Assembly: GCA_965223505.1 (NCBI GenBank)
Contig: CBDCWP010000040.1
Location: 96,001 to 160,000, forward strand
Direction of reading: 5' to 3'
Source: Planctomycetota bacterium
Lineage (GTDB): Bacteria; Planctomycetota; PLA2; JAEUHO01
DNA: 64,000 nt
Below are positions 22,301 through 49,689 of the stretch, piece after piece. How positions within the stretch are numbered: position 1 is the first letter of the stretch; each line of letters opens with the position of its first letter. A program made the translations under genes and the position numbers. The notes under the pieces were generated by a model that made no database searches, was not told the origin of the DNA, and was given only the letters and a program-made list of their open reading frames with translations.

Positions 22301-23809
22301 TGTCGTATTTGGCTTTGCTTCCTTTGCCTTCGTTGAGCTTCTCGCGCTCCTCCGCTTCTCGCTGTATGGCGTCGTACAACTCGTTGTCGCGCTTGATAAG
22401 ATCGTCAACGGCCTTCTTGACCTTGGGGTCCTTTTCGAGAGCGCGCTCAGTCTCCTCGTCGTACCTGTCGTACTGGTCGTCGTACTTGTCTACGAGCTTA
22501 GGTGGCTCGATCTGTGCTAGGAACAGCGGCGGCGCCGTGGGCACGCCAGCCGCTTCTCGACGCGCGAAGACTTCTTCGATCATTCGCGCCGCACCCGGCC
22601 CCCGGGTCGTCTCGGTCGAGTCCCCGTCGCGCTCGCCTCTGCTTTCCCCTGGCGGCGGAGGAGGAGGTGGCGGGGCCGATGGTGCCTGGGGTGCGTACTC
22701 CCGCTCGGGCGGCGCGCCGCCGGGTGGCGTCGCCGGCCGGGACGGCTCCTCGCCGTGAGGCGGACGCATCGCCGGAACGACGACCTGAGGTGTGGGCGAA
22801 GCGGGAGGTCCAGGCGGTTTCGGCGATCCCTTGCCACGCCCCTCTCCAGGGAACCGCGGGACGCCACACTGCCATGGTGTCTCATTGAACGGGTACGGCA
22901 ACGGGTAGCTCGGAACGTAGTCCGCATCGAGCCATCGACCACTCTCATAGTCGGGCTGCGGCACCGGTAGCCACGGATACGGATACGGACATCCCCGCGG
23001 GAGGTCCCGCTGCGCAACCCAGGCGTAGTCCCCCAAGGGCCTCGGCTTCGTTGGAGGCCCGTAGAGCGACTCCATTGGAAGCTGCAAGAGCTCGTCCACC
23101 GAGCCCTCTCCAGTCAGGGCGCGCCCGAGAGACGTCTGTCGAAACGCTTCGTCGCGTTGCCGCTGAAACTCGGCCTCCCGCTCTTCGAGCTCTCGGTTCG
23201 ACGCGCCGATCGGTTGACTGTCGGTCCCGCCGATGACGGTGTAAGGCTGCCTGGCATCGGGCAGCGGCGTTGGCACTTGCACCCATCGATACTGCCAGCG
23301 GCCAGGATCCGCGTCGTCCATGTAGGCCTGCAGATGGCGGCCAGCCTTCGCGAGTTGCCGGATCTCATTGTGAGCCCGCTGTTGTGGACTTCCGAAGCGG
23401 GCGTGAACGCCCGGTGCGATGTCGTACACCTTGCGGCGCGCGTTCCACCGAAGCAGTCCGTCTTCGATGACCTGCGGCGGAGTAGCCACGGATCCCCAGC
23501 TCGGATCGAACTGAGTGATCTCATGCAGGCGCGAACGCTGCGGCGTGCTCGGCGCGTTTCCCCAGGGCTGGCGCAATCCGGGTGACACGCCGCCTCCAGG
23601 TCCCAAGAGTCTCCCGTTCCCCAGCTCGGATCGAACTGAGTGATCTCATGCAGGCGCGAACGCTGCGGCGTGCTCGGCGCGTTTCCCCAGGGCTGGCGCA
23701 ATCCGGGTGACACGCCGCCTCCAGGTCCCAAGAGTCTCCCGGCAGCGTACGGATCGAATTCCGGCCGACTCGCAACGTCTCGGACGTAAGGGTTGAAGAC
23801 ACTCGGCAT
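19356..23809 (-). CDS. Large Pro-rich/coiled-coil protein with C-terminal polymorphic-toxin-like domain; split by a 125-bp tandem duplication (1,442 aa if one copy is removed)
   Basis: ATG 23809 overlaps the upstream TGA; ORF 19356..23606 continues after the duplication; C-terminal TVLGS...GARHF...W...E...L..LGY domain. Confidence 0.7.
23493..23741. repeat. Perfect tandem duplication, 124-bp unit with 125-bp period
   Basis: 23493-23616 is identical to 23618-23741. Confidence 0.95.
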
Positions 23810-24696: not shown

Positions 24697-25608
24697 CTAC
24701 GGCGTCACGTCGCTTAGCCGGATCAGCGAACCCGGCGACAGAGTCGCGAAGCCGATGTTGAGCTCCAGGTCCGCGTACAGCAGGTCCGCTTCCGCCGAAG
24801 TCCGGTGCGGACCGTCCACGCGGATGCCGGCACCGGTGTCTTCGTTGTAGAACCACACCAAGCCGCCGAACTGGGGCTCGTCGTCTCTGGGACCGAGGAT
24901 CGTCAGGTACACGGACGTCGTCGTTGCCGTCTCGGTGTCGGTGATGAAGTCCGACACGAGCACCGGCACGCCCATGTAGCACGCGACCGGCAAACCGAGG
25001 ATCGGGTCCGGCTTGACTTGCGGCGTGAAGCCGGAGGCGTGGCAAAGCGCGGTGAACGCGCTGTACTGGCCGCGGTTCATCACGAACGCGCGCGGCGTGC
25101 CGCCATCCCACGGGTAGAGCGCCTCGATCATCGAGTCCAGGTGCGCCAGCGTCAGCGCCCCGGCCGCACTGATCGTCTGCGCGGCCTCGACCAGCGTCTC
25201 GAGTCCCGCCGGCTCGTCCGTGACGTTGTCGCCATAGATGAGCTTCTCACCTACGGTGTTCCACATCGCGATCATCTTCTCTTGGATCTGCTGCTCGAAG
25301 ACGTCGTTGATCATGCTCACGTTCTGAGCGATGTCGCCGGTGACCTCGACCTTGGCGGCGATGCGGCGAAGCTCGAACTTGCGCGCCGTCGAGTCGTAGG
25401 TCGTCGCCGAAGCGTCCGCGTTACCGCCGGAGTCGATGAAGCTGGCCGTCGCCAGTGTGTCAACCTCGGTGCACTGCAGGCTGTCGCCGCGCACCATCAC
25501 TTTCGGAACCCTTGGCAGGAGCTGATCCGAGTTGTTGTTGACGAGGTACGCGCCGAGTACCTGCGGATGCGAAAGCAGTAGTGCTTGTGCCTTGGTGACG
25601 GAGGTCAT
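24697..25608 (-). CDS. HK97-fold major capsid-like protein
   Basis: LLPRVP, LRRIAAKVEV, VFEQQIQEKMIAM...LIYGD...PAGL, LTLAHLDSMI, FVMNR and YMGVPVLVSDFI match phage major capsid patterns; RBS GAGGAG. Confidence 0.82.
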   Translation of the reverse strand: MTSVTKAQALLLSHPQVLGAYLVNNNSDQLLPRVPKVMVRGDSLQCTEVDTLATASFIDSGGNADASATTYDSTARKFELRRIAAKVEVTGDIAQNVSMINDVFEQQIQEKMIAMWNTVGEKLIYGDNVTDEPAGLETLVEAAQTISAAGALTLAHLDSMIEALYPWDGGTPRAFVMNRGQYSAFTALCHASGFTPQVKPDPILGLPVACYMGVPVLVSDFITDTETATTTSVYLTILGPRDDEPQFGGLVWFYNEDTGAGIRVDGPHRTSAEADLLYADLELNIGFATLSPGSLIRLSDVTP

Positions 25609-29677: not shown

Positions 29678-29890
29678 TTGAATCAGGTTGGCGAGCCGCT
29701 CTTCGTTTCGATCGACTGCGAGACGGCGAACTGCGATCTGCGGAGCATCTGCCAGGTTGGTATCGTTGCTTTCGATTCAGACGGCCCTGTCAAGGAATGG
29801 TCGTCGCTCGTAGATCCCGACGACTGGTTCGACGAGGTGAACATCGAGATACACGGAATCGATGAGAACGCCGTCCGGGACGCGCCCAGC
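29678..29890 (+). pseudogene. Truncated DEDDh 3'-5' exonuclease (DnaQ-like) N-terminus
   Basis: FVSIDCETAN...SICQVG...SSLVDP...IHGI...VRDAP, after which similarity is lost. Confidence 0.75.
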
Positions 29891-29899
29891 CCGGTCGAG

Positions 29900-30162
29900 A
29901 GGGCAAGACGCGCAAGCCACTACCTCCCGATCAGGTCGATCGCACGATCCCGGTCATGCCGGAGCGGTGCGCCGGGTGTCGCTCGACACTTCGGCCCGAG
30001 GACGTGGCTGGTGATCCGTTCCGTCATCAGGTCATCGAGATCCCTCCCGTCGTTGCCGAGGTCGTCGAGTACCTCCTGCATGCCCTCAAGTGTAGGCGCT
30101 GCGGCGAGATCACCGCCGCGGACCTGCCCGAGGACGTGCCCAAGCACCCCGCCTCGACGTAG
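29900..30162 (+). pseudogene. IS66-family transposase zinc-finger fragment
   Basis: PERCAGC...RHQVIEIPPVVAEVVEY...CRRCG...ADLP. Confidence 0.75.
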
Positions 30163-30400
30163 AACGCGAAGCCGCGTGTGACGCACTTGAAGTCCGGCCC
30201 GCCGTTCTTCGGATGTTCGGCCGGCTCGATGTGATCGACGTAGCGCACGAGCCAGCGCCGGCATAGCGCCCCCCAGATCGCTCCCTCGATCATCCGGTCG
30301 TCAGCGAGCCGGCGCCGCCACTGCGTCAGGTAACGCGGCGTGAAGCCCGACAGCCAAGTAGCGTGTTCGTCGATTGTGGGCGCATGGACGCGCCGCAGCT
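30150..30400 (-). pseudogene. Fragment of a PD-(D/E)xK-like nuclease; boundaries approximate
   Basis: IEPAEHPKNGGPDFKCVTRGFAFYVEA, truncated at the IS66 fragment. Confidence 0.4.
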
Positions 30401-30668: not shown

Positions 30669-31379
30669 TCAGTAGTCGGTGCGGCAGGCACGGGCTGTAT
30701 TTTCGCGGCGACCCCCGACCATCCGCTTCACGACCTGGACGTGCCAGCACTTGGCGTCGCGGGGATTGCGAGCCTCCGCGATCAGCACGCGCCCGATCCG
30801 GCGCAGCGACAACCCCGCCGCCCGCAGCTCCCGTGCCCGCGCGACCGTGGCCTGCTCGTCGGCATCCTCGACGACCCTTCCGTCCTCGAGCCGGTAGCCA
30901 TAGGGAACGCCCCCGACACGCTCGCCATTCGCTTTCTTGACCGCCAGCGCGGCCTTCGTTCGAGACCGGATGATCGCGCGCTCGTACTGCGCGAACACGT
31001 CGATGACGCCTCTAAGCAGCTGCGCCTCGGGGCCGTCGCCGTTGCCGGTGCCGTCGGCGGACTGCACCCGCGCGCCGTGCCGCTCGCACAGCCGCTCGAC
31101 CAAGGCGGCGGTTAGTACGTCCCGGGCGAGGCGGTCACGCTTCGCCACAACCAGCAGACTGGCGCCTTCGCGCCTTACCGAATCGATCGCAGCGACGAGC
31201 TCGGGTCGCTTCTCGAACGCCGCGCCGCCGGACACGCCACTATCGAAGTGCCAGGCGACGACCACTACATCGTTTCGCTTTGCCCACGTACGGATCGCCT
31301 CGCGCTGTGCCTCGGGTGAGAGGTCCTGGCGGGACGTGGAGCAGCGTAGGTAGGCGATGGCGCAGGTCGGCTCGCTCAT
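30669..31379 (-). CDS. Serine recombinase (resolvase/invertase family)
   Basis: AYLRCST catalytic Ser, DSGVSG, RPEL, KRDRLAR, AQYERAIIRSRT, PYGY. Confidence 0.92.
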   Translation of the reverse strand: MSEPTCAIAYLRCSTSRQDLSPEAQREAIRTWAKRNDVVVVAWHFDSGVSGGAAFEKRPELVAAIDSVRREGASLLVVAKRDRLARDVLTAALVERLCERHGARVQSADGTGNGDGPEAQLLRGVIDVFAQYERAIIRSRTKAALAVKKANGERVGGVPYGYRLEDGRVVEDADEQATVARARELRAAGLSLRRIGRVLIAEARNPRDAKCWHVQVVKRMVGGRRENTARACRTDY

Positions 31380-31541
31380 GTGGGCCTCCAAGGGCGAGGC
31401 GCATGAGGGCGTTGAGGGCCCGGGAGATCAAGGGAACTCAGCCTGTGGGGCGGCAAGCGCGGGGCGGTTTGTCTGTTTCGCGTCGGATCTGCGCCCGTTC
31501 TCTGTCCGACTCCCGCTTCCGCCTCTACGACGCTTGTCAGC

Positions 31542-31790: not shown

Positions 31791-31908
31791 GGTGGACTCC
31801 CCGAGGAGCATCATCGCTCACTCGACTTATCTGTAAGCGTCCTGTGAACCGCGCCTTGCAGCGTTGTTTCGATCCGTCAGGATTCTCCGTTCTGAACGGA
31901 GATGGCCG

Positions 31909-32226
31909 ATGGCAGCGAAGAAACGGTGGCGCGGCAGAGCGACGTACGAGCGGTTGCTCGAGCAGCGCGCGCGTGAGGGCCTGACGTTTTCTGAACTCGC
32001 CGAGCGCTCCGGTGTCCCGGTTGGGACGCTTCAGCGCTGGGCTCGCCGACTGCGAAGCGAGGCGGCGAGCGCGGTCGAGCCCTTCGTGGAGCTCGCACCC
32101 GTTCAGCCGGAATCTTGCGAGGAGCGCGTCGAAGTCGTGCTGTGTTCAGGCCGCACGATCTACCTGCCGACATCGAAACCGTTCGTGGGGCTCGAGGAGC
32201 TCGTGACGCTGCTCGAGTCGTGCTGA
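31909..32226 (+). CDS. tnpA: IS66 accessory protein TnpA (HTH)
   Basis: GLTFSELAERSGVPVGTLQRWARRL...FVEL. Confidence 0.88.
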   Translation: MAAKKRWRGRATYERLLEQRAREGLTFSELAERSGVPVGTLQRWARRLRSEAASAVEPFVELAPVQPESCEERVEVVLCSGRTIYLPTSKPFVGLEELVTLLESC

Positions 32227-32600
32227 GCCTGCCGGACGCGGTGCGCGTGTTCGTAGCGCGCGAGCCGGTGGACTTTCGCAAGGCGCACGACGGGCTGTGC
32301 CAGGTCGTTCGCGACGTCTTCGGCGACGACCCGCTCTCGGGGCATCTGTTCGTGTTCACCAACAAGCGTCGTGATCGTATCAAGCTGCTCTTCTGGGACC
32401 GCAACGGACTGTGGCTTCTGTACAAGCGATTGGAGCGCGGCACGTTCCCGCGCTTCTCGCTGCCCGGACGTGCATCGCGCCGCGAGGTCGATCGTTCGTG
32501 GCTTGCGATGTTGCTCGACGGATTGGAGCCGTTCTCGGCAAAAGTTCATTCGCGTCATGTCCGACGTGTGCGTATAGATGAACGCAGCGCGCATGGATGA
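32220..32600 (+). CDS. tnpB: IS66 accessory protein TnpB
   Basis: PVDFRKAHDGL...LFVFTNKRRDRIKLLFWDRNGLWLLYKRLERGTF. Confidence 0.95.
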   Translation: MLSLPDAVRVFVAREPVDFRKAHDGLCQVVRDVFGDDPLSGHLFVFTNKRRDRIKLLFWDRNGLWLLYKRLERGTFPRFSLPGRASRREVDRSWLAMLLDGLEPFSAKVHSRHVRRVRIDERSAHG

Positions 32601-34185
32601 ACGCACGGCCCTTCTCGAACGTATCAATGAGCTCGAGAACGAGGTGTCGGCGCGCGACGCGAAGATCGGAGAGCGCGACGCTGCGATCGAATCGCGCGAT
32701 GCGAAGATCGCGCAACTCCTACAAAACGTGGATGCGCTCAAGCGCATGATCTGGGGCGGCTCGGAGAAGCAATCGACCAACGCTGCGCCGCTTGAATCCG
32801 CGCAGTTGTTCCTGGCCGGCATCCTCGAGCGAGCGCTGCGCGGGCCTGAGGCCAAGGGTGCGGTGGCCACGAGCCAGATCCAGGTTCCTGCGCACACGCG
32901 CAAGAAGAAGGGGCGCCGCAACCAGTTCCCCGAGCACCTGCCGGTGCTCAAGACGACGTTCGAGCTTGCGGAGACGGAGCGCTCATGCCCCTGCGGCGGC
33001 CATTTGGAGCCGATGGGCAAGCAAACCAGCAAGGAGCTCGAGCGGGTGGAGTTCTCGCTGGTGCACGAGATCGAGCGGGTGAAGTACAGCTGCCGAAGTT
33101 GCCAAGAGAACGTGGTGACCGCGGCGGGTCCTGAGCGGGTGATCGACAAGGGCATCCTGGGTGTGGGGTTCTTGGCGCACGTGCTCACGGAGCGGTTCTT
33201 GAATCACATGCCGTATCACCGGCAGGAGAAGAAGTACGGATCGGAAGGCCTTTCGCTCTCGCGCTCGGTGCTCTCTTCTTCCTCGATCCGCTGCGCACAG
33301 CTCCTGGAGCCCATCGTGGATCAACTGCGGCGCGAGATTCTGGGTTCGGACATCGTGCACACCGACGACACACCGGTGACGATGCTTCAAGACAGCACGG
33401 GCGTGAAGCGCCAGGCGCGGGTGTGGATCTATCGCGACATCGACGGCCGTTGCTTCTTCGATTTCACGCAGACTCGCAGCCGGGACGGGCCACAGAAGAT
33501 CTTCGGCGACTTCGGCGGCTACATCGTGGCCGATGCGTTTCCGGGCTACGACAAGTTCTTCACGCACGGCACGGCCACGGAAGTGGCCTGCTGGGCACAC
33601 GCGCGTCGGAAGTTCGTGGCGGCGGAGTCGAGCGAGCCGAAGCTGGCCAAGGAAGCGATTCGCCAGATCGGCGAGTTGTACGCAATCGAGAAGCTCGGCA
33701 AGGACCTGGACGCGAAAGCTCGAAGAGAGCTTCGCGTACGTGAGTCCCTGCCGCGACTTGGCGCGCTGCGGACGTGGTTCGCGGCAACGCGCTCGACGGT
33801 TCTGGACAAAGGCGCCATGGGCCAGGCCATCGACTACGCGCTATCCAACTGGGACGCGCTCGTGCGCTACACCGAGGACGGGCGGCTTCCGATCGACAAC
33901 AACGCCGCGGAGCGCGCGCTCAGAGGCGTCGCGGTGGGACGCAAGAACTGGATGTTCGTAGGCAACCAGGCCGGCGGCGAGACGGCCGCGGGAATGTACA
34001 GCCTGGTGGAGAGCTGCAAGGCCGCGGGCGTGAATCCGCGCGAGTACTTCCAGGACGTGTTGCTGCGCATCGCCACGTGCTCGGATGTGACCAAGCTCAC
34101 GCCGCACGGATGGAAGGAACACTTCCTGCCGGACGTCGAGCAGCGACGCCAGAGCGCGCTGAAGAAGCTCTTCGCTCGCGCGTAG
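32578..34185 (+). CDS. tnpC: IS66 DDE transposase TnpC
   Basis: Coiled coil, Zn finger, HTDDTP, CWAHARRKF, IDNNAAERALR. Confidence 0.96.
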   Translation: MNAARMDERTALLERINELENEVSARDAKIGERDAAIESRDAKIAQLLQNVDALKRMIWGGSEKQSTNAAPLESAQLFLAGILERALRGPEAKGAVATSQIQVPAHTRKKKGRRNQFPEHLPVLKTTFELAETERSCPCGGHLEPMGKQTSKELERVEFSLVHEIERVKYSCRSCQENVVTAAGPERVIDKGILGVGFLAHVLTERFLNHMPYHRQEKKYGSEGLSLSRSVLSSSSIRCAQLLEPIVDQLRREILGSDIVHTDDTPVTMLQDSTGVKRQARVWIYRDIDGRCFFDFTQTRSRDGPQKIFGDFGGYIVADAFPGYDKFFTHGTATEVACWAHARRKFVAAESSEPKLAKEAIRQIGELYAIEKLGKDLDAKARRELRVRESLPRLGALRTWFAATRSTVLDKGAMGQAIDYALSNWDALVRYTEDGRLPIDNNAAERALRGVAVGRKNWMFVGNQAGGETAAGMYSLVESCKAAGVNPREYFQDVLLRIATCSDVTKLTPHGWKEHFLPDVEQRRQSALKKLFARA

Positions 34186-34867: not shown

Positions 34868-36718
34868 CTAGCGAGGAACGATCAGCACCGTGCAGCCCGC
34901 CTCAGCAGCAAAGCCCTGCCGAAACGCTCTGCGATCCGCGATCGTCGAGTCGGGGTCGTAGATTACGAAGAGCGTGTGTCCGGCCGCTCTGTACTTGACG
35001 ATGTCGGCCGCGACCTCGTCTGTGATCTTGCTTGGTGGCCGCGTCTTCCGAGGGTACTTCGCCTCGATCAGCAGGTCGTGGCCCGCGACCTGATGGTCCG
35101 GTACCGCCCGTACGCTGGCGAATCGGATCGCGGGATGCTCGCGGCGCAGTGACTCTCCGTCGGCATTCAGCACCGCTTCGATGTGGTCGTTCAGCGAGTG
35201 TTCCCTGCTCGGCCGCTCATGCTGGAAGGCAATCGGGATGCTGTTCGACAGCCGGTCGGCGAGCGCCGCGATCAGAGCCTCTACAGGAGGTCTCAGATAG
35301 GCGCGATTCCGAATCAAGTCGAGCGCCGTGTCGGCCACGACGGGCAAAGCCGGATCGTCGTACAGATCTCGAAGGCGCCTGAGCGCACCGCGGACGCGGG
35401 AACCGTGGGTCTGCCACAGGCGCCACAACTGCTCGAGCGCTTCTGGCTCTGAGTCCACACCGACATGCGGTAAGACGGCGAGCAGATCATTGACGCGCTC
35501 TCGTCCGAATCGATCGACGCCCATCTCGGACGTCCTAATGGCCTGGCGCACGTAGTCCACGAACGTGGTCTTCTGCTCCGCGTCCAGGACGTCGCGGGCG
35601 AGATCCTTCGCATAGAGCTGCGGGTTCTCGTTGTCTTCCAGTTCGGCCGCAAGAATCGCCAAACGACGATCCACACACTGGAAGCAGCATCCGCAGTGCG
35701 TCTTCCCCTCGCCGAGAATGAAGGTCTTGGTGCATGAGACACTGCTCGGCAGCAGGTCGATCTGCCCGTGACTCTCAAGCAATCGAACCACATCAGTCTT
35801 GGTCTTCCACAGGAACGGCGTCGCGATCTCGAACGGCTCCTCCGCAATGATCGTGAACAGTTGGTTCAGGCCGGCAATGGTCCGCGGGTGAGTCGTACGG
35901 CTGGACCGACCGAGGCCGGCATCCTCACGCCGGGGGAAATTCAACGACGTGATGCCGTTCTCGCAGGCGGCGAATCCGTCACGACCGAGGGCGCGGCCTA
36001 AAGCGAACGCCATGCACGCATAGAGGAAGAAACGCGAGCGCTGCGTTTCCTCCTGTGCTCGCTCGCCTGTCAGGTGGCACCGGAACTGGTAGTGCGCCAC
36101 GCGCCCCGCGTATCGTCCCCTCAGTGCTCGCACCAGTTCTCGCTGCGTGCGCGTGACGCTCGGCTGGCGGGAGGAGTGGCTGACCAGACACAACGGGGAG
36201 TCGCGCGTGGAGAGGTGCTCGACCGCACCGGCGAGCGAGTCCAGGCCACCAGAGAACAACTGGACATCGGCGTCCGATGCGCACTCGGTCACTTCGCCGG
36301 TGTCGAAGAGCGATGCCGGCGGCGTGGCATGCCCGCCCTCGAACGCGAACCGGTACGGCTCATCGCCGGTCAGGAAGTGCAGGAGTTCCGTGAGGGCGTC
36401 TACGACGTCCGCACGCGCCCAGAACTCCGCGTCGCGGCAGCGGACCCGGAACTCAAGACGACGAGACCAGCTGTGAAACTCCAGGCTTGTGGGCGAGCCT
36501 CGTGATATCCGGCGATCTGCGCAGTAGACGTAGCTCGCCAGTTCGAGCAGATCGAGGAACCGCGGCGGGAGGGTTCCGAGACTCCGCACGAAGTCGGGCA
36601 ACCCGATCGCCACGTTCGCATCGGGCGGGCGGTACTCGAGCCGCAACTGCCCGCCCCTAGATCGCTCGCGTCGGCCCATCGCAGCACCGTTGCACAGAAT
36701 GACCGTGGGATCGCTCAT
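34868..36718 (-). CDS. QueC-like (QatC-type) protein with fused C-terminal PD-(D/E)xK nuclease
   Basis: LFSGGLDS PP-loop, QRSRFFLY, ENG, SRTTHP, SC...HCGCCFQCVDRR Zn site; C-terminal REHP...VPDH...LLIEAKY. Confidence 0.85.
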   Translation of the reverse strand: MSDPTVILCNGAAMGRRERSRGGQLRLEYRPPDANVAIGLPDFVRSLGTLPPRFLDLLELASYVYCADRRISRGSPTSLEFHSWSRRLEFRVRCRDAEFWARADVVDALTELLHFLTGDEPYRFAFEGGHATPPASLFDTGEVTECASDADVQLFSGGLDSLAGAVEHLSTRDSPLCLVSHSSRQPSVTRTQRELVRALRGRYAGRVAHYQFRCHLTGERAQEETQRSRFFLYACMAFALGRALGRDGFAACENGITSLNFPRREDAGLGRSSRTTHPRTIAGLNQLFTIIAEEPFEIATPFLWKTKTDVVRLLESHGQIDLLPSSVSCTKTFILGEGKTHCGCCFQCVDRRLAILAAELEDNENPQLYAKDLARDVLDAEQKTTFVDYVRQAIRTSEMGVDRFGRERVNDLLAVLPHVGVDSEPEALEQLWRLWQTHGSRVRGALRRLRDLYDDPALPVVADTALDLIRNRAYLRPPVEALIAALADRLSNSIPIAFQHERPSREHSLNDHIEAVLNADGESLRREHPAIRFASVRAVPDHQVAGHDLLIEAKYPRKTRPPSKITDEVAADIVKYRAAGHTLFVIYDPDSTIADRRAFRQGFAAEAGCTVLIVPR

Positions 36719-37497
36719 CACTCGGACCGGCCCTCGCGAGCGAGCACTTCGCGCAACTTCTCAAAGGCGTATGCGACGAATCCTCGTACAACCGAGGCTG
36801 TGGGCTGCCCCTTCTGAGCGATCTTGTTGAACCAGCCCGCGGCGAATGACTGGGCGATGCGCGCTGTCTCGAACGCGTGTTGAGAGACGTCGTTCAGATG
36901 CGCGCTCAGGTCAGCGTCCAGCGCATCACGCGCGTCGAAGTCGGACGACGCGGCGGAAGCAGCGCGTTCCAGGTAGTACTTCAGATAGCGCTCCGTGCAG
37001 CCAGCGAAGAACAAGCGGGCGAGGTCAGAGAAAGCGGAGCCGCTACCCAGCTTGCGCCAGACCTCGTGAGGGTGCTTCAGCTCCTCGAAGAGCGGCGCAT
37101 CGTGGGGCTTCGCTTGGTCGTACCACGTCACGACCGCATCGGCGGCAGCCCGTGCAGCGAGTTCGGCGTACTCCGGTGCTCCTTCGCTCGCGCCAGCCGC
37201 ATCATGTAGGAATCTCGCCGCCGCCAGCGGCGTGACGGTTCGTTCCGTTCCCAGAAGACGTTTGAGCGTCGCGTCATCGGGCTCGCGGCAGGCGAGCCCG
37301 ACGGAGACCAGCGCCTGGAAGACGCCAACCGTGCTGTTGTCGGACGCGAGCCTGCTGAACCGGTCCCGCACGGCATCAAGGGTCTCGATCGCCACCGCGC
37401 CGATCGCCACCGTGCCCGAGGCGGCCCCAGAGACATCAGAGACGATGTTTTTCCACCGCCGCGTCTTGGGAAGGAAGCCGAGTCGCTCATGCCCCAT
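36718..37497 (-). CDS. Helical partner protein of the QueC-like enzyme (QatB-analogous), N-terminal Met-Gly
   Basis: MGHERLGFLPKTRRW start with RBS GGAGG; TGATG coupling to the QueC-like gene. Confidence 0.7.
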   Translation of the reverse strand: MGHERLGFLPKTRRWKNIVSDVSGAASGTVAIGAVAIETLDAVRDRFSRLASDNSTVGVFQALVSVGLACREPDDATLKRLLGTERTVTPLAAARFLHDAAGASEGAPEYAELAARAAADAVVTWYDQAKPHDAPLFEELKHPHEVWRKLGSGSAFSDLARLFFAGCTERYLKYYLERAASAASSDFDARDALDADLSAHLNDVSQHAFETARIAQSFAAGWFNKIAQKGQPTASVVRGFVAYAFEKLREVLAREGRSE

Positions 37498-38008
37498 TTG
37501 TCGTGCCTTCCCTCCGCGTGCCCCCCCCCCGCTGGGCCCCGTCCCGGGCGGGGGCGCGGCTCGCGGACCACGTGACCCCGTCGTGAGCGGTCCGGACCGC
37601 TCCGCCCTCCGGCGAACCCCTCCGCCCCCGCCGAGCATATGCGCGCGGGGCGCCAGAGCACTACGGGCTGGCGGTCTGCCGCGGTGCCGGAGCACGCCGG
37701 GCGTCGGCCGTCACAGTGACCAACGGTGAGTGACGGTCGGGCGTTCAGGGCGCTGTAGCCGGTGGGAGACGGCGTCGTCAGGGACGGCAGGCGATACCTA
37801 ACATCGTGGTTCTGGGCAGAGCCGTGGTAGGCTCTCGGGGCGGGAAAGGGTTGATTCTGGACCCCGGGCAGCTCGGGGATTATGGGCCACGGTTCGCCTT
37901 CGGCGGGGTGCTCTAGGCCCAAAGGCCCATCCCAAAGCGCCCACGCCGTCGTGTTAGGTAGTCGGGGCTCCAGGACGCCTCACGTCGCCCTGTGGGCGCC
38001 CCCATCGG

Positions 38009-38395
38009 TCAGGCGTCCCGTTCGTCGCTCGAGCGCCCAGGACGCGCCCGTGCGCCATCGTCGCGCGCCGGTCCGGACACCCGGCCGACGCGCTTCCCCG
38101 AGTCGGGGCCCATCCCGGCCATGCGAAGCCGTGCCAACGCCTCGGCCGCCCGGAGTCGAAGGCGTGGCGTGAGACGCTCGTCCTCCGCCGCATCCGCAAG
38201 CGCCCCGGCGTGCTCGAACGGGGGCGCACGCTCAGCGAGCCGGGCAGCCACGACCATCAGCAGTAGCCGCGCGCTCTCGCGAGCGTCGCGCGCGTCCCAT
38301 CCACTGCGGCGGGGAAGGCTCGCCCGCCTCGCCTCCCACGGCTCCCACTCCCAGTCGGGCCGGTCATCGTCAGCCGCGCGCATCAGCTCGACCAC
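38009..38395 (-). CDS. Small hypothetical protein paralogous to the putative TerS
   Basis: LADAAEDERLTPRLRLRAAEALARLRMAGM resembles 39680..40162; overlaps the terL 3' end. Confidence 0.5.
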   Translation of the reverse strand: MVELMRAADDDRPDWEWEPWEARRASLPRRSGWDARDARESARLLLMVVAARLAERAPPFEHAGALADAAEDERLTPRLRLRAAEALARLRMAGMGPDSGKRVGRVSGPARDDGARARPGRSSDERDA

Positions 38396-39702
38396 CTCGT
38401 TCGTTGGACCGCCCTACCGAAGCGTCCGACGAGGCGGGTCTTCTGCCGACGCGGCGTTCCGGCAACCGCGGGAAGCCGGGCCTCGATCAGCGATCCGTTG
38501 AACACAGCGACGGCGTAGGCGAGCACGTCTACCTGATCGTCATGAGCACCCTGCGGGAAGCCCAGCAGCTCGTCCACGAAGTCGCGACACCAGTGCGCAT
38601 GCCGAGGCAGGAGCACCCGCCCTCCTTCCAACGCAGCCGTCGCCGGCAGCGCGCGGGAGACCTTGTCGCGGTCGGCGCGCAGCTCGCGAATCGGAAGCCC
38701 GTGTCGGCGTGCCTCCTGGATCAGCGCCAGCTGGAAGCCGACCTTCTCAACCCACAGCACGGGCAGCTTCCATCGCGCGCGGGCGGCTTGCATTGCGGGG
38801 ACCAGGTCGGGGCCCTCGCGCCGGGCGCGGTCGATCGAAAGCACCAGCAACCGTCGATCGGGCGTCACTCCGAAGACCCCGATCACGGAGTAGTCGGCGC
38901 TGGTGCGAACTGACGCCGCGAGATCGACCGTGGCGAATCGTCGGAGCTTCGAAACGCGAAGGATCTCGCCGCCGGGCAACTGAACCGTTTCAGGCGAGGG
39001 CCTCGCGTAGCGGTGCTCGAACCACTCGGGCTTGAACAGACCGGCTCCGGCGGTCACGAATTGGGCCAGATGCTCTTGCGCGAACTGGAGCTCGCCCATG
39101 TCGCGTCGCGCGGCGACGAGCTCCTCGGCCGGGATGATGGGGTTCTCGCTCGTTGGCCGCTGCCAGCGTGCCCAATCCGACGACGTCTCCGCCGTCTGGA
39201 ACAGGTCCGCGATCCAGTTCATGCCGCACGGCGTCGTGAGGAACAGCGCCCAGCCCTGCCGGTCGGCCAGTGCGGGGCGGATGCCGTTGAGCCACGCCGC
39301 CTCCTTCATGAAGGCCGCTTCGTCGAGCACGACGCCGTCCAACCCGACGCCGCGAAGTGCGTCGGGATCGTCGGCGGACTTGACGGTGATCGCGCCGCCG
39401 CCCGGCAGCACGATGCGCATCTCCTTCTCGCGCTTCTCGATCCATGCGCCACGGAGCGCCTTCTTGAGATCGCGCCAGATCAGGAGTCCCTGGGGGTAGT
39501 TCGGCGCAACCCACCAGACGTTCCCGCCGTCGAGTGCACCGCGGAATCCGGAATCCGGCGGGCCGTGGCCCTCGACGCAGGCAATCAGGCCAAGCAGCGA
39601 TTTCCCCCAACGGCGACCGCACACCACGACCTTGAGCCGAGCCGGGTGTCGCAGCACGTCGAGTTGGTGCGCGAGCGGGTCAGGCAGGAGGATCTTCGCC
39701 AT
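38383..39702 (-). CDS. terL: Terminase large subunit (Terminase_6/6C type)
   Basis: Walker A GRRWGKS, Walker B VVLDEAA, TTP coupling motif, RNase H DLAAS...DYS, FPQGAHDDQVD. Confidence 0.93.
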   Translation of the reverse strand: MAKILLPDPLAHQLDVLRHPARLKVVVCGRRWGKSLLGLIACVEGHGPPDSGFRGALDGGNVWWVAPNYPQGLLIWRDLKKALRGAWIEKREKEMRIVLPGGGAITVKSADDPDALRGVGLDGVVLDEAAFMKEAAWLNGIRPALADRQGWALFLTTPCGMNWIADLFQTAETSSDWARWQRPTSENPIIPAEELVAARRDMGELQFAQEHLAQFVTAGAGLFKPEWFEHRYARPSPETVQLPGGEILRVSKLRRFATVDLAASVRTSADYSVIGVFGVTPDRRLLVLSIDRARREGPDLVPAMQAARARWKLPVLWVEKVGFQLALIQEARRHGLPIRELRADRDKVSRALPATAALEGGRVLLPRHAHWCRDFVDELLGFPQGAHDDQVDVLAYAVAVFNGSLIEARLPAVAGTPRRQKTRLVGRFGRAVQRTRWSS

Positions 39703-40162
39703 CGTTCTCGCTCGGTTTCAGTGGCCCCTGGACGCCGTGCCCGTTCGACTCGGGCGCAGCGCTTCGAGGCAGGGCGGCATCGTCCCGGCTCTGTTCGGAC
39801 TCGAGAGAGGACGCCGCGCGCCAGTCCTTGGCCCGAACGATCTCGATCGACTGGTTCACCTGCGTGAGTGCGAGTGACTGCGGCCCCGGCTTGAGACCGA
39901 GCCGATCGAGGGCGACCTCGCGAGCGCCCGTCAGCTCAGACAACGCCTCCATGGCTTGGAGCCTGAGTTTCGCGAGCACCTCGGCCGCGCGGCGACGTTC
40001 GCGGATGTCGTTCTTCTCGTCGCCCGCGATCTTGGTCAGGACGGCGACGTCCAGGTTGTGCTGGAACGCGGGCGTATCGAGGAACGCTCGGTAGGCCTCG
40101 ATGGAATCCAGCGCCCTTTGCTCGAGTTCGTCGTCGTCGCCCTCGGGATCGCGCTCGTTCAC
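39680..40162 (-). CDS. Putative terminase small subunit
   Basis: 160-aa helical protein directly upstream of and overlapping terL; C-terminal IEIV strand; GTGA coupling to the MTase. Confidence 0.55.
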   Translation of the reverse strand: MNERDPEGDDDELEQRALDSIEAYRAFLDTPAFQHNLDVAVLTKIAGDEKNDIRERRRAAEVLAKLRLQAMEALSELTGAREVALDRLGLKPGPQSLALTQVNQSIEIVRAKDWRAASSLESEQSRDDAALPRSAAPESNGHGVQGPLKPSENDGEDPPA

Positions 40163-41496
40163 GATGCGCGTTCCGCACTCTGGCCAGTCACCTGCTCGTA
40201 GCGCTTTACGATCACGTCGCAATAGAGTGGGTCGATCTCCATGAGGAAGGCGCTGCGGCCCGTGCGTTCCGCGCCGATGATCGTGCTGCCGCTCCCGCCG
40301 AACAGGTCGAGCACGTTCTCTCCGGGCAGGGAGCTGTAGGTGATCGCGAGCACGGCCAGTTCGACGGGTTTCTCCGTCAGGTGGACCATGCTCTGCGGGT
40401 TGACCTTCTTGACGGCCCAAAGGTCCGGCACGTTGGGCGGCCCGAAGAACTGGTGCGCCGCCCCTTCCCGCCAGCAGTAGAAGCACCATTCGTGCGCACC
40501 CATGAAGTCCTTACGCGTCAAGACCGGGTGCTGCTTGTCCCAGATGATGGCCTGGGAGAAGTACAGCCCGGCCTCCTTCAGCGCCGCGGGGTAGTTCGCG
40601 CAGTTGGCGTACCCGCCCCAGATGTAGGCGGCGCGACCCGGCAGGAGCGCGCGGGCGGCGTTCGAGAACCACGCGCGCAGCATCTCCGCGAACGCCTCGT
40701 CCGACACGAAGTCGTTCTCCAGCGGCCGGTCCTTGGCTCGCAGCCGCTCGTGCGTTGCGTTGCGCTTGCTCGGGTGGCGCGCAACGTCGAGTCCCTGGTG
40801 GTGCGTCGCGCTGAACGACGAGAGCCCGGCCGCGATGGCATTGTTGCTGCGCGGCTCGACCTTCACGTTGTAGGGCGGGTCGGTGTTCACGAGGTGCACG
40901 GGCGCTCCATCGAGCAGCCGGTCAAGGTCCTCGACGCTGCCGCTGTCGCCGCAGAGCAGCCGGTGGCGCCCCAGGAGCCACAGGTCACCAAGCCTCGTGA
41001 TGGCCTCTTCGGGCGGCTCCGGGACGGCGTCGAGATCCTGGTCCTCCTGCATGGCACGAATCGCCTGTTCGGCTTCGTGGGCGATGCGGCGCATCTCCTT
41101 CTCATCGAAGCCAAGCGTCTGGAACACGTCCGGTGGCAGGGCCTGTAGCTCTTCGGAGAGCCGCACGAAGTCCCACTCGGCGAGCTCGGACGTGCGGTTG
41201 TCGGCAATCGCGTAGCCGCGGGCTTCCGCGCCATCAAGGTCGGTGGTGATGGCCGCGATCTGTTCCCAGCCAAGGTGCTTCGCCGCCGCCAGGGTGCCGT
41301 TGCCGGCGAGCACCGTCCCGTCGGGCGCCACGACGATCGGCTTCTGCTGGCCAAAGCGAGACAGCGAGTTCGCGATGGCCATGAGGTTGCGTTCGTCGTG
41401 CGCGCGCGCGTTGTTCGGATCAAGGCGCAAGTCGGCCGCAGGACGCAAGTGCGCATCGAGGCCAGGAGCATAGCGGGGCACTACCGATGCAACCAT
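40159..41496 (-). CDS. ParB-like domain plus N6-adenine/N4-cytosine DNA methyltransferase
   Basis: NARAH...FGQQKPIVV...LAGNG...ADNR ParB-like domain; DPPY; HLTEKP; VLDLFGGSGST. Confidence 0.93.
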   Translation of the reverse strand: MVASVVPRYAPGLDAHLRPAADLRLDPNNARAHDERNLMAIANSLSRFGQQKPIVVAPDGTVLAGNGTLAAAKHLGWEQIAAITTDLDGAEARGYAIADNRTSELAEWDFVRLSEELQALPPDVFQTLGFDEKEMRRIAHEAEQAIRAMQEDQDLDAVPEPPEEAITRLGDLWLLGRHRLLCGDSGSVEDLDRLLDGAPVHLVNTDPPYNVKVEPRSNNAIAAGLSSFSATHHQGLDVARHPSKRNATHERLRAKDRPLENDFVSDEAFAEMLRAWFSNAARALLPGRAAYIWGGYANCANYPAALKEAGLYFSQAIIWDKQHPVLTRKDFMGAHEWCFYCWREGAAHQFFGPPNVPDLWAVKKVNPQSMVHLTEKPVELAVLAITYSSLPGENVLDLFGGSGSTIIGAERTGRSAFLMEIDPLYCDVIVKRYEQVTGQSAERAS

Positions 41497-45254: not shown

Positions 45255-45727
45255 CCGCATCCGCCACCGAGGGCCTCGCTGCCAGCATTCGCGCACTCGG
45301 CGAGCTGAGCGTGCCCGATCTGAGGCGTCGCTTCGAGCAAGTCTGCGCGCGCCCAACGCGCTCGGACAACCGCGAGCACCTGACCCGAACGATCGCGCAG
45401 ACGCTGTGCGACGCCGACCCGCCCAGTGACCGCAACGCTCGCCGCCGCGTCGCACGCGCGCTCGAAGCGGCGCTGCGTCCCCGGAAGGGACCGGAAGCAC
45501 GCTCGGCTGATCCCCGCATCCCGCCCGCCGGCAGCATCCTCCGACGCCGCTACCGAGGGCGCGAAATCCAGGTTCGGATCAGCCGCAGGGGCTTCGTCTA
45601 CGAGGGCCAGACGTACAGCTCGCTCACGGCCGTCGCGCACGCCGTCACCGGCGCCCATTGGAACGGCTTGATCTTCTTCGGCCTAACCGAACGGAAGCGT
45701 GGTCCGGCCGGAAGGAGGCAATCGTGA
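45251..45727 (+). CDS. DUF2924 family protein
   Basis: DPRIPPAGSILRRRYRG...GFVYEGQTYSSLTAVAHAVTGAHWNGLIFFGL. Confidence 0.88.
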   Translation: MTASATEGLAASIRALGELSVPDLRRRFEQVCARPTRSDNREHLTRTIAQTLCDADPPSDRNARRRVARALEAALRPRKGPEARSADPRIPPAGSILRRRYRGREIQVRISRRGFVYEGQTYSSLTAVAHAVTGAHWNGLIFFGLTERKRGPAGRRQS

Positions 45728-46806
45728 GCCTCTACAAGCCGAAGCGCCGCGATCGTCACGGCGTGCTTCGCCCCTGCGGCGTGTGGTGGACGGACGTCGT
45801 GGTTGCCGGGACGCGCTACCGCCGCTCGCTCGGGGTACGCGACAAGCACGCCGCGCAGGTTCTCGAAGCAGAGCTGATCCGCAAGCTCGAGCTCGAAGCC
45901 GCGGGCCTGCCGGTTGAGAACGGAACGGCCGACGCCAAACCCTCCGTGCTGATCGGAGAGTACGAGCGCGAGCTGCAGCGTCGCCGCTGCTCCGTCGTGC
46001 ACGTCCGCAAGTCCATCCAACGCGCCGAGGTCCTTCTCAATGGATCCAAGCGGCTGGCGGACGTCACACCCGCGAAGATCCGTGGCGCCCTGGATCGGCT
46101 CTCCTTGGGAGAGGCGTCACCACGAACGGTGAACGCCTACCGCCTCGCGCTCTCGGGCTTCTTCAACTGGCTGGTACGCGAGGGACGCTGGCCGACCAAC
46201 CCGGTCAGGCAAGTCGCGGCAGTGAAGGTCAACGGCGCGACACGCATGCGCCGTGCTCTTACGGAGCGGGAACTCGCCCGTCTTCTCGACGCCGCTCCGT
46301 CCGCTCGGGCGCTTGTCTACCGCGTGGCCGCCACGACCGGGTTGAGGCGCGGAGAACTCGCAGCACTGACCTGGGCCGACATCGACCTGGACGCAGCAAC
46401 GCTTCGGGTGCGGGCCTCGACGTCGAAGAACCGACGTGATGCCACGCAGCCCCTCCCCGACGGAACGGTGGTCGCTCTCGCGACGGCCTGCGGCGAACGC
46501 CAGATACCTAGCTCACGGGTGTTCGCCTCGATCCCGATGATGCCCACCTTTCGCAACGACCTCGATGCCGCCAACATCCCCTACGAGTCGGAAGAAGGGG
46601 TGGCCGACTTCCACGCCCTGCGTGTCACCTACGCGACCATGTTGGCGCGGGCGGGCGTCTCGCTGGTCCAGGCCCAACGGTTGATGCGCCACTCCGATCC
46701 GAAGCTGACGGCCAACATCTACACGAGGTTGCAGCTCGATGACGCGCACGCCGCGGTGGCGCGGATCGACCTCTGCACGAAGCGGCCGGGTCGCGTCACC
46801 AACTAG
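45724..46806 (+). CDS. int: Tyrosine recombinase/integrase
   Basis: TGLRRGEL (R), K, DFHALR (HxxR), MRHSD, IYT catalytic Tyr; N-terminal arm-binding RYRRSLG. Confidence 0.95.
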   Translation: MSLYKPKRRDRHGVLRPCGVWWTDVVVAGTRYRRSLGVRDKHAAQVLEAELIRKLELEAAGLPVENGTADAKPSVLIGEYERELQRRRCSVVHVRKSIQRAEVLLNGSKRLADVTPAKIRGALDRLSLGEASPRTVNAYRLALSGFFNWLVREGRWPTNPVRQVAAVKVNGATRMRRALTERELARLLDAAPSARALVYRVAATTGLRRGELAALTWADIDLDAATLRVRASTSKNRRDATQPLPDGTVVALATACGERQIPSSRVFASIPMMPTFRNDLDAANIPYESEEGVADFHALRVTYATMLARAGVSLVQAQRLMRHSDPKLTANIYTRLQLDDAHAAVARIDLCTKRPGRVTN

Positions 46807-46940: not shown

Positions 46941-48119
46941 ATGCCGAGGAGCGTGCCCGCGCCCGTGAACCCCGACGTGCTCGTGTGGGCGCGAGAGTCC
47001 GCGCGTTGGAGCCGCGAGCTCATGGCTAAGGCCATTGGCGTGGATGTCGCGAAGGTGACGTCGTGGGAATCGGGTGACGCGACGCCGACGTTGGCGCAGC
47101 TTCGCGCGTTCGCCAAGAAGTGTAAGCGGCCGTTATCGGTGCTCATGCTCGATGAACCGCCTCGCGACTACATGCCCCTTGAAGACTACCGGTCGATTGC
47201 CGGGACTGCCGTCACAGCTGATGCTCCCGCCCTCGCCTATCAGGTCCGGCTCGCGTGGGAGAGACGAGAGACTGCTCTCGACTTGTACGACGATCTCGGC
47301 GAGCGCCCCCCCGATTTCGGTGTAGAGGCGACGCGTAGATCGAAACCGGACACCCTGGCTGCGCGGCTCAGAGACCGACTGGGCACTCCCATCGAAGCTC
47401 AGATGAAGGCGAGAACCGCAGCTGACGCGCTCCGTATGTGGCGCTCCGCTTTCGAAGCGGCAGGTGTGCTTGTCTTTCAGGCACCGCGCTTGAGCGAAAA
47501 CGCAATGCGGGGGTTTTCTATCGGCGAGCACCCACTGCCGGTGATCGTGTTGAACAGCAAGGACGCAATCGTGGGGAAGATCTTCACGCTGTTTCACGAA
47601 CTGGCGCATGTGGCACTGCGACATGGCGGCGTGTGCGACCTCGAACCACGCCACCTCTCACCGGAGAAACGCAACGTCGAGGTGTACTGCAACCAAGTCG
47701 CCGCCTCCGCGCTCATGCCAGCCGAGGTCTTCCTCGGCCAGCACATCGTCGTTAGAAACGAAGGCCATATGGAGTGGTCGAACGGCGACGTCACGGCCCT
47801 TGCACGACGATTCAACGTCAGCAGAGAGGCCGCACTACGGCGCCTGTTGACATTCGGAAGAACGACGGAGCGCCACTACAAAGCAATGCGTGCCGCTTTT
47901 GCCGATGAGTACGAGCGAGTGCCCACGACCGAGCCGCTACGAATCCCGCAGGACATCATGGCCATCAGCAGAAACGGGAGGGCGTACTCGCAGCTCGTGA
48001 TCGCCGCCTATGACGCCAACGCAATTACAGCAGCCGACGCGTCAGACTTCTTGGGCGCCAAGCCCAAGTACATCGCGAAGATCCGGGATCGAGCGTTCTC
48101 CGCGGCGGGAACCGCTTGA
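46941..48119 (+). CDS. XRE-HTH plus ImmA/IrrE family metallopeptidase
   Basis: N-terminal HTH (LVWARE...WESG...PT); FTLFHELAH; EVYCNQVAA; RRFNVSREA. Confidence 0.92.
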   Translation: MPRSVPAPVNPDVLVWARESARWSRELMAKAIGVDVAKVTSWESGDATPTLAQLRAFAKKCKRPLSVLMLDEPPRDYMPLEDYRSIAGTAVTADAPALAYQVRLAWERRETALDLYDDLGERPPDFGVEATRRSKPDTLAARLRDRLGTPIEAQMKARTAADALRMWRSAFEAAGVLVFQAPRLSENAMRGFSIGEHPLPVIVLNSKDAIVGKIFTLFHELAHVALRHGGVCDLEPRHLSPEKRNVEVYCNQVAASALMPAEVFLGQHIVVRNEGHMEWSNGDVTALARRFNVSREAALRRLLTFGRTTERHYKAMRAAFADEYERVPTTEPLRIPQDIMAISRNGRAYSQLVIAAYDANAITAADASDFLGAKPKYIAKIRDRAFSAAGTA

Positions 48120-48897: not shown

Positions 48898-49689
48898 ATG
48901 GACGCCATCGACCGGAAGAAACAGCAGACGGATCTAGTTGTGGGCTTGGGACATCTGCTGCGTCCGCTGCGAGGTATCGCCGTGGAAGGCAAGACGCAGG
49001 CCGAGATCGCCAACGCGTGTCGGGAATTCAATGCAGACCTGAAGGACTACCGCCGAGCGGCCGACGCATTCGCAGAGGAGTACGAAGTAGAGCGCATTAG
49101 CATCACCAGAGCGCTCAACTTGCTGGCGAATCAGCTCGGTCACCACCGGGACAAGCCCGATTCACTGGCGCGAGAGTTGGACACCGCGCAGGCAGCCGTG
49201 ACGGACGCGCTGCTGCGCGTACCGCTAGAGGTCCCCTCTCTCGTTGTAGGTGAACTGTCGCCGTTTCGCGCATACCTGACGCTCAAGACGCTGTTCAGCG
49301 CAGCGCGCACGCGGGTCATGTGCACGGACCCGTATATGGACCGCACCATCTTCCACCGCTACGTCGCCGACGTGGACCCCAACGCCGCTGTGTTGCTGGT
49401 CACTACGAACAAGGGTGGCCGAGGCGCCAATCGGCTAAGGGAGGTGGTGGACGTGGCGCGCCTGTACGCCGCCGAGCGCTCGCCCACTGCATTCACGCTG
49501 GTTCAGGCCGCGAGCGCGCACGACCGGCATCTCGTGTGCGACAACGAAGCCCACCATCTGGGCGGATCGCTGAAGGACGCCGCCGCGAAGGACCACTACA
49601 GCATCACGCCGCACGACCTCACCGATGCGGAGAACGCGATCCAGACGCTGGTGGCCGGTGGCACCACGTTGATCGCGCCGCCCCCGTAG
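48898..49689 (+). CDS. Hypothetical protein: helical N-terminus plus C-terminal PLD-like domain (HDR variant)
   Basis: TDPYMD...AHDRHLVCD...HHLGGSLKD pattern. Confidence 0.6.
   Translation: MDAIDRKKQQTDLVVGLGHLLRPLRGIAVEGKTQAEIANACREFNADLKDYRRAADAFAEEYEVERISITRALNLLANQLGHHRDKPDSLARELDTAQAAVTDALLRVPLEVPSLVVGELSPFRAYLTLKTLFSAARTRVMCTDPYMDRTIFHRYVADVDPNAAVLLVTTNKGGRGANRLREVVDVARLYAAERSPTAFTLVQAASAHDRHLVCDNEAHHLGGSLKDAAAKDHYSITPHDLTDAENAIQTLVAGGTTLIAPPP

Follow-up and report, generated by a model that had tools for sequence, protein, structure and literature searches.

The gene pair and its layout

Our analysis concerns a pair of overlapping genes in a 64,000-nucleotide stretch of DNA, hereafter the window, from Planctomycetota bacterium assembly GCA_965223505.1 (contig CBDCWP010000040.1, positions 96,001 to 160,000 of the forward strand). 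The upstream gene, gene 1, encodes a predicted helical protein that we call the partner. The downstream gene, gene 2, encodes an enzyme resembling QatC, a component of the QatABCD anti-phage system, with a nuclease domain of the PD-(D/E)xK type at its C-terminus. Below, we argue that this pair is probably a compact anti-phage module. Coordinates are listed in Table 1.

Stop and start codons overlap in TGATG, the TGA belonging to gene 1 and the ATG to gene 2. In related loci, too, the partner open reading frame (ORF) either ends where the enzyme ORF starts or overlaps it there. Note that gene 2 has an alternative GTG start, one codon upstream at position 36721, which would extend the product from 616 to 617 amino acids. 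An AAGG/GGAGG stretch is found 5' of the partner ATG. A longer partner of 325 amino acids, starting at an upstream GTG, was rejected because relatives match the family profile from residue 1 and the public gene call is 259 amino acids. A consensus scan detected no promoter-like site, and no excess of terminator-like sites over shuffled sequences.

A run of ten G, at 37521-37530 on the minus strand, is positioned 24-33 bases 5' of the partner ATG. The run lies in a gap of 886 bases that precedes the terminase gene and has 70-73% G+C, and could be a slippage-prone tract.

Gene 2 has the complete architecture of QatC

The product of gene 2 resembles QatC by profile, sequence and predicted fold. 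Residues 55-386 match the PADLOC QatC model (E 3.5e-50). By sequence, solved QatC was matched in chain 9zee_B (E 1.1e-25) and in a second chain (E 1.1e-24). An AlphaFold2 model, made from 32 relatives, has a predicted local distance difference test score (pLDDT) of 85.9 and a predicted template modelling score (pTM) of 0.84. With Foldseek, this model matches QatC chain 9y01_B, from a QatB-QatC crystal structure, at E 8.5e-19 with a TM-score of 0.76 (474 alignment columns; normalised to the 428 residues of the chain). QueC and Cap9 rank far behind QatC in the same comparison.

Numbered on the 616-residue protein, the motifs of gene 2 are SGGLDS at 156, RSR at 227, ENG at 253, SRTTHP at 273 and CGCCFQC at 342. 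These are followed by VPDH at 539 and IEAKY at 551. Conservation, for the enzyme and for the partner, was counted in 32-sequence alignments. Residues S156, G157, G158, D160 and S161 are invariant in 32/32 enzymes, and align to SGGMDS or SGGLDS of solved QatC. Similarly, R274, T275, H277 and P278 are invariant, with T276 conserved in at least 90%, and these positions align to RTTHP of solved QatC. The elements E253-N-G255 (ExG) and P301-x4-T306-K307 are also invariant, as are all four of the cysteines C329, C342, C345 and C348. These invariant motifs agree with the list of QatC motifs in PMC13329287, and a four-cysteine zinc site has been described in QatC (PMC13279940). The Thr-Thr of QatC replaces Tyr/Asp of QueC and Cap9 (PMC13279940, PMC13639016).

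We also considered a metabolic QueC paralogue. This was rejected, since scores against canonical QueC models fall far short of the cut-offs (25.6 against 150.3 bits for TIGR00364, and 16.9 against 378 for PRK11106). From the Pfam QueC profile, the C-terminal third alone is matched by gene 2. A PHROG named 'QueC-like queuosine biosynthesis' gives a match at E 2.4e-13. We conclude that gene 2 has the complete QatC architecture. An earlier sequence-only reading of the window had listed motifs of a QueC-like protein, assigned this protein to the QatC type and suggested a PADLOC check. Every motif named is found in the translation, and the assignment is borne out by the PADLOC match, by the sequence and fold matches to solved QatC, and by the invariant motifs.

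A PD-(D/E)xK domain is fused to the enzyme and exchanged in relatives

The same reading had placed a PD-(D/E)xK domain at the C-terminus of the enzyme. This was confirmed by Pfam family PF18742 (REase_DpnII-MboI), with a cut-off of 27 bits, and by the catalytic residues. The family matches gene 2 with 34.8 bits when the whole protein is used (residues 525-614) and with 38.7 bits for the domain alone. All of the relatives' C-terminal domains compared also match PF18742 (22/22). D541, E552 and K554 are invariant in 32/32 full-length enzymes, and the same catalytic positions (D65, E76 and K78 in domain numbering) are invariant in 22/22 domain sequences. In the model, helices and strands alternate across residues 506-614, with strands at 533-535, 549-554, 581-587 and 609-614. 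A profile search of the Protein Data Bank (PDB) found no solved relative of the REase domain, the best match being FKBP at E 0.73. When residues 490-616 were used as the query, 14 proteins were returned, every one of the same architecture. Judging from its conserved residues, the fused nuclease domain looks active.

In all, 160 related loci were examined. Half are the best 80 of 474 genome-contig stretches encoding a relative, and the remaining 80 are from viral contigs. In the 80 genome loci, the C-terminal domain is REase in 59, TIR in eight and of another kind in 13. TIR domains are NAD-consuming effectors. The TIR call was made by sequence inspection in all eight loci (L001, L008, L022, L024, L032 and L044-L046), and 4/4 of those scanned match Pfam TIR_2 (E 7e-16 to 2e-15). 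The 13 loci of another kind include nine Ignavibacteriota proteins and some truncated genes.

To place these forms, we made a quick tree by maximum likelihood from the QatC-like parts (LG+G4, 89 rows). The tree has support from the Shimodaira-Hasegawa-like approximate likelihood ratio test (SH-aLRT) only, and some long branches in it are flagged. The TIR forms are nested among REase forms and account for at least two changes. The window enzyme pairs with a Longimicrobiales sequence, adjoining two TIR forms. We conclude that the C-terminal domain is a swappable module.

The nine Ignavibacteriota proteins form a clade (L049, L053-L055, L057-L060 and L075) in which a lysine-rich tail, of approximately 90-135 amino acids, is present instead of REase. 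No family match was obtained for these tails.

The partner has a conserved Gly-His N-terminus

The model of the partner is all-helical, with a pLDDT below 50 for residues 1-10. In a Foldseek search with this model, all E-values were above 0.001. QatB is eighth by E-value (0.16), yet has the top TM-score and probability of the rows listed (probability 0.94, TM-score 0.43/0.50). An ESM-Atlas row, with Pfam QatB (PF28083) on 15% of its members, scores 0.88 and is taken as a lead only. As modelled, the partner has the fold of QatB without recognisable similarity in sequence. The aligned region starts at partner residue 14 and QatB residue 72. Hence, the free arm of the partner would be far shorter than that of QatB.

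At the N-terminus, residues M1, G2, H3, R5, L9, P10 and W15 are invariant. Among loci with a covered N-terminus, the start codon (ATG, GTG or TTG in the genome loci) is followed by Gly in 75/75 genome loci and 64/64 viral loci, or 139/139 in total. Gly-His follows the start in 74/75 and 63/64, respectively (137/139 in total). Matches to the partner profile begin at residue 1 of profile and protein alike. Conservation extends over residues 1-24, after which comes a linker rich in indels. Conservation in the partner and in the enzyme goes well beyond chance, and the partner N-terminus is under strong selection.

The identity of the residue after Gly2 differs between protein families. It is His in the 137 partners counted above, while Thr-Ser is found at this point in canonical QatB, and Gly-Ser in CdnD. 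An N-terminal Gly-His could be relevant to recognition or metal binding.

The pair is a widespread two-gene module

With the enzyme as the query, 1736 proteins were found at E up to 0.001; the 120 top-ranking ones are 602-700 amino acids long, with PF18742 in 120/120 and PF06508 in 116/120. Some source names label the enzyme 7-cyano-7-deazaguanine synthase. A search with the partner returned 427 proteins, and the 120 listed are 249-278 amino acids long with no Pfam domain. Among representative clusters, the partner profile matches 1102 at E up to 0.001, 648 at 1e-10 and 181 at 1e-30. The genome loci span many bacterial phyla, and one metagenome-assembled genome labelled archaeon.

In 79/80 genome loci, the partner is directly upstream of the enzyme and on the same strand. 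In the exception, L017, the contig continues for only approximately 200 bases upstream of the enzyme. Among these loci are three partners that each occupy two ORFs, one split enzyme and a few genes truncated at a contig end. At the viral-contig loci, a more distant partner is upstream in 71/80. Of the nine loci without it, four begin at the edge of a contig and five have shorter, more distant enzymes. No third gene is conserved across the 80 genome loci. The commonest flanking families occur in 8/80 each, two being DNA methyltransferase-like by sequence and one integrase-like. In the same way, no recurrent NTPase family, downstream gene or transglycosylase-like third gene was found in the 80 related loci. 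The partner is present in 3/60 related genomes and is single-copy in the source genome.

These data support a self-contained, widespread, two-gene module. The earlier reading had described a minimal two-gene module, with an upstream helical partner starting Met-Gly. Both aspects held up; the partner is upstream in nearly all genome loci with no conserved third gene, while the all-helical model, the TGATG overlap and the Gly at every covered start agree with the description of the partner. The patchy spread, along with the mobile-element context described below, fits a role in defence.

Two groups of relatives are worth describing separately. On plasmid NZ_CP091938.1 of Leptospira noguchii (L085, positions 62720-65364), a REase-type two-gene module adjoins an IS982 transposase, and both genes of the RefSeq copy are labelled 'hypothetical protein'. 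The viral branch (L096-L169, IMG/VR contigs) is more distant. It has an MGH partner and a QatC-like protein of approximately 600-750 amino acids.

Genomic context of the pair

On one side of the pair is a phage terminase gene and on the other a capsid gene, with an IS66 element and a resolvase as neighbours (Table 1). The region from 24697 to 46806 is prophage-like, and the pair is probably prophage cargo. Since portal and head genes are expected between terminase and capsid, the prophage may be defective or rearranged.

Table 1. Positions in the window of the gene pair, its parts and the neighbouring genes
Feature	Position	Strand	Remarks
Gene 1, QatB-like partner	36718..37497	-	259 amino acids, all-helical (model), starts MGHERLG
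Partner codons 1-14 (MGHERLGFLPKTRR), conserved N-terminal arm with proposed acceptor Gly2	37456..37497	-	
Partner residue 3 (His)	37489-37491		
TGATG stop/start overlap of both genes	36716..36720	-	from the sequence
Gene 2, QatC-like enzyme fused to PD-(D/E)xK nuclease domain	34868..36718	-	616 amino acids plus stop
QatC-like part, residues ~1-480: N-extension, QueC core, helical C-extension	35279..36718	-	end approximate
PP-loop SGGLDS, residues 156-161, putative ATP site	36236..36253	-	from the translation
RTTHP, residues 274-278	35885..35899	-	from the translation
Cys cluster C329, C342, C345, C348, putative zinc site	35675..35734	-	from the translation
C-terminal PD-(D/E)xK domain, residues ~505-616, Pfam PF18742 REase_DpnII-MboI	34871..35206	-	
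Catalytic motif D541 ... E552-x-K554 (DHQVAGHDLLIEAK)	35057..35098	-	from the translation
Capsid	24697-25608	-	
Short DEDDh-exonuclease ORF	29678-30181		
Resolvase (serine)	30669-31391	-	
IS66 element, complete	31864-34185	+	
Large terminase	38383-39702	-	
ParB-N6 methylase	40159-41496	-	
Integrase	45658-46806	+	
ImmA/IrrE-like regulator	46941-48119	+	

We scanned 19-51 kb of the window, taking mostly ORFs of at least 150 amino acids (at least 200 above 42 kb). The ORFs scanned gave no match to TatD, CD-NTase or KAP NTPase, and KAP_NTPase (QatA type) had no match anywhere in the genome, which has a completeness of 92.5%. PADLOC models for CD-NTase and the cyclic oligonucleotide-based antiphage signalling system (CBASS) gave no match in 24 neighbouring ORFs; Cap10/TGT was not searched by name. 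This is consistent with the sequence-only reading, according to which QatA, QatD and CD-NTase are all missing. The genome does contain queuosine genes, encoding a canonical QueC (235 bits), a QueD-type PTPS (122.8 bits) and a QueE-like radical-SAM protein (52.6 bits, below cut-off). Hence, a 7-deazaguanine-type carboxylate (CDG) is plausibly available as a substrate.

Two further loci in the window deserve mention. Beside the capsid region, at 19356-23606 on the minus strand, a 1416-amino-acid ORF has a weak PADLOC LmuB match (E 2e-6) and no Pfam match. This may be a tail or tape-measure-like protein. At 48898-51351, on the plus strand and adjoining the integrase and regulator, a 492-amino-acid protein combines DACNG and DACNH sensor domains with a DisA-type diadenylate cyclase domain, according to Pfam. 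The preceding ORF (48898-49689) matches the PADLOC candidate family PDC-S05. These genes may be a cyclic-nucleotide defence candidate.

Interpretation and alternatives

On balance, the two genes probably make up a self-contained Qat-like module against phage, which is carried in a prophage and whose QatBC core has a nuclease fused to the enzyme. In the mechanism that we propose, the partner and the fusion protein would form a complex. After removal of Met, the conserved arm of the partner would start with Gly-His and could enter the PP-loop active site of the gene 2 product. Using ATP, the enzyme would attach CDG, supplied by the host's own queuosine pathway, to the amine of Gly2. When a phage infects, the fused nuclease, or TIR in sister forms, would be controlled by whether the arm is free, bound or modified. 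The nuclease would then cut DNA and halt phage growth, probably at the cell's cost. Because DNA-cutting and NAD-consuming domains swap, we favour an output of the cell-shutdown type.

By analogy, we infer the binding within a complex, the modification chemistry, the trigger and the role of the nuclease as a gated killing part. The sequence-only reading had started from the premise that a deazaguanine is joined to the Gly of a partner, and this has precedent. Briefly, Cap9 places 7-amido-7-deazaguanine on Gly2 of CdnD after Met removal (Wassarman et al., 10.1101/2025.04.06.647259), and an NDG-modified peptide from the N-terminus of QatB was detected by liquid chromatography with tandem mass spectrometry (PMC13639016). 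QatB and QatC form a 1:1 complex, and both Gly2 of QatB and the QatC active site are essential for protection (PMC13279940). Overall, the sequence-only reading is supported in part; its further step, gating of the fused nuclease by the modified N-terminus of the partner, is a proposal.

A broader proposal, to which we give less credence, is that the pair represents an immune class with nucleobase-protein conjugation as a switch in cis. Here, the ligase would mark the Gly-His of the partner and the arm would turn on the fused output. We are similarly tentative about reading the alternative C-termini, namely PD-(D/E)xK nuclease, TIR NADase or winged-helix DNA binder, as outputs of a single 'writer plus output' architecture.

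Several observations weigh against a Qat-type module with a gated nuclease. Some concern the distance from canonical proteins. The NCBIfam QatC model (NF041925) matches gene 2 at E 1.6e-52, with 178.8 bits, under the equivalog cut-off of 280. In the tree, 81 family members are split from eight canonical QatC sequences, as a separate clade, by a branch with 100% SH-aLRT support. The partner has no match to Pfam, PADLOC or NCBIfam models at E up to 1, nor to PHROGs or PDB sequences. When 32 partners were compared with eight QatB sequences, from annotated qat operons on plasmids, hhalign gave a probability of 2.9%, and so showed no sequence relation. The arm of the partner is approximately 13 residues long, or at most approximately 31 if the first short helix and linker are included, and its N-terminal motif is MGH rather than the MGTS of QatB. 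Other observations concern the chemistry. In PMC13279940, Gao et al. detected no modification, and propose a different product as possible for the Thr-Thr site. ATP turnover was undetected in vitro (PMC13639016).

The remaining difficulties relate to the fused domain. PD-(D/E)xK domains can alternatively act in DNA binding or sensing. Furthermore, the REase part of the profile is reached by 0/80 viral-contig loci. These loci have 68 tails of at least 90 amino acids, with clusters of 33, 15 and 9. The cluster of nine is a Trans_reg_C winged helix (4/4 scanned above cut-off). The cluster of 33 has weak helix-turn-helix (HTH) matches, below cut-off, in 2/5 scanned, and an ESM-Atlas lead to Trans_reg_C (0.89); the cluster of 15 has no family match. 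Since no viral relative reaches the REase part, and some have a winged helix, a toxic effector is not constant across the wider family. In view of the winged-helix tails, and of published protection by QatBC without a nuclease, the fused domain may be an accessory output or targeting part and need not be a gated effector.

It could then be that the pair is a defence system in which immunity comes from the QatBC-type core, while the PD-(D/E)xK domain binds DNA, senses or targets. REase, winged-helix and other tails would be alternative means of DNA recruitment or phage-DNA sensing. We think this unlikely. The viral loci (80, none reaching REase) do keep an MGH partner and a QatC-like core, and two clusters of their tails point to winged-helix or HTH folds. 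However, mere binding would not need the D, E and K that are invariant in enzymes and isolated domains alike, and TIR, which replaces REase at least twice, does not bind DNA. Published work can be set on either side. QatBC alone, from P. aeruginosa or E. coli, protects against lambda-vir without QatA or QatD (PMC13279940), but the canonical Qat complex keeps the nuclease QatD (PMC13639016).

Less probable still is an addiction module, similar to a toxin-antitoxin system, that stabilises the mobile element. In this case, the partner would restrain a nuclease toxin, and defence would be absent or incidental. Two tightly coupled genes, with a potentially toxic enzyme downstream, would suit such a role. 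Yet a plain antitoxin needs neither an ATP-dependent, QueC-type ligase with all catalytic motifs conserved, nor an invariant N-terminal Gly. Likewise, such a module would explain the patchy distribution and why the pair is in a prophage in the window and on a plasmid in L085, but not the winged-helix variants, which have no toxin. In addition, an anti-phage role is proven for the closest relatives that have been characterised (PMC13279940, PMC13639016).

Finally, a Dpd-type system of deazaguanine DNA modification and restriction, in which the QueC-like domain makes a DNA base precursor and REase cuts unmodified or modified DNA, is very improbable; there is a QueC-family domain beside a restriction-type nuclease fold, and a PHROG match named for queuosine biosynthesis, but the TIGR00364 score is 25.6 bits where 150.3 are required, the active site has the Thr-Thr of QatC, QatC does not complement a queC mutant (PMC13329287), no third gene such as a transglycosylase recurs in 80 loci, the genome has its own QueC elsewhere, and swaps to TIR and winged helix do not fit a restriction enzyme.

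Significance

A Qat-type module with a fused nuclease, which we consider the probable explanation for the pair, would broaden the Qat kind; 1102 representative clusters belong to the partner family, and relatives occur in many bacterial phyla. Approximately one third of QatC-cluster genes adjoin qatA or qatD (PMC13329287). The family described here may account for part of the QatC genes that have no such neighbour. Our literature search, which did not extend to subscription papers or supplements, found no published description of QatC fused to REase or TIR.

The QatBC reaction, and the link between QatB modification and restriction, are stated to be unknown in the structure papers of 2026 (PMC13279940, PMC13639016). 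The module should allow testing of whether N-terminal nucleobase conjugation controls an effector. Fused, easily assayed enzymes, PD-(D/E)xK here and TIR in sister forms, would provide a direct read-out of the switch. If a switch in cis does operate, the missing effector step of Qat could be read as DNA cleavage or NAD loss.

Comparison with known defence systems

The QatABCD anti-phage system was reportedly described by Gao et al. in 2020. Structures and genetics of Qat have since become available (PMC13279940, PMC13376578, PMC13639016). The N-terminal loop of QatB binds the nuclease QatD, and QatB, QatC and QatD assemble into a 1:1:1 complex (PMC13639016). QatD is inhibited by nucleoside triphosphates (PMC13434339).

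The window module is like QatABCD in gene order, with a helper gene before the enzyme gene and a stop/start overlap. In architecture and motifs, the enzyme is a full QatC. The helper has a predicted QatB fold and an N-terminal Met-Gly. In the published system, the core pair suffices against some phages and the complex includes a nuclease. There are also clear differences. The window module has neither QatA nor a separate QatD. Its nuclease is of the PD-(D/E)xK type and fused to the enzyme, whereas QatD is a TatD TIM barrel. The helper is not recognisably QatB by sequence, and has an arm of approximately 13 residues starting MGH, whereas that of QatB is approximately 70 residues and starts MGTS. 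The window enzyme is in a separate clade, under the NCBIfam QatC cut-off. With QatA and QatD absent, a score under the NCBIfam cut-off and a partner that is not recognisably of the QatB sequence family, we place the module outside the definition of QatABCD.

A second comparison is provided by plasmid NZ_CP150124.1 of Bradyrhizobium ottawaense (L089:2426-4555). Here, the annotated qatC encodes a 709-amino-acid QatC-TatD fusion (Pfam TatD, E 1.2e-46, residues 468-705), with no separate qatD after it. As in the window, QatC is covalently joined to a nuclease and a qatB gene comes before. However, the nuclease there is of the QatD type (TatD), the tree puts the enzyme among canonical QatC sequences, and a P-loop NTPase gene is upstream.

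In type IV CBASS, as in our proposed mechanism, a QueC-family ligase acts in immunity on the Gly2 amine of a partner after Met removal. Unlike the window enzyme, which is of the QatC type, Cap9 is a minimal QueC, of approximately 185 amino acids, with the canonical Tyr/Asp site (PMC13329287). Its substrate, CdnD, is a CD-NTase, and the system needs Cap10 and a cyclic-nucleotide effector.

A further comparison is with the sister forms. These differ from the window at the C-terminus, where TIR_2, Trans_reg_C or a domain without family assignment is found instead of REase. The MGH partner and the QatC-like core are the same as in the window.

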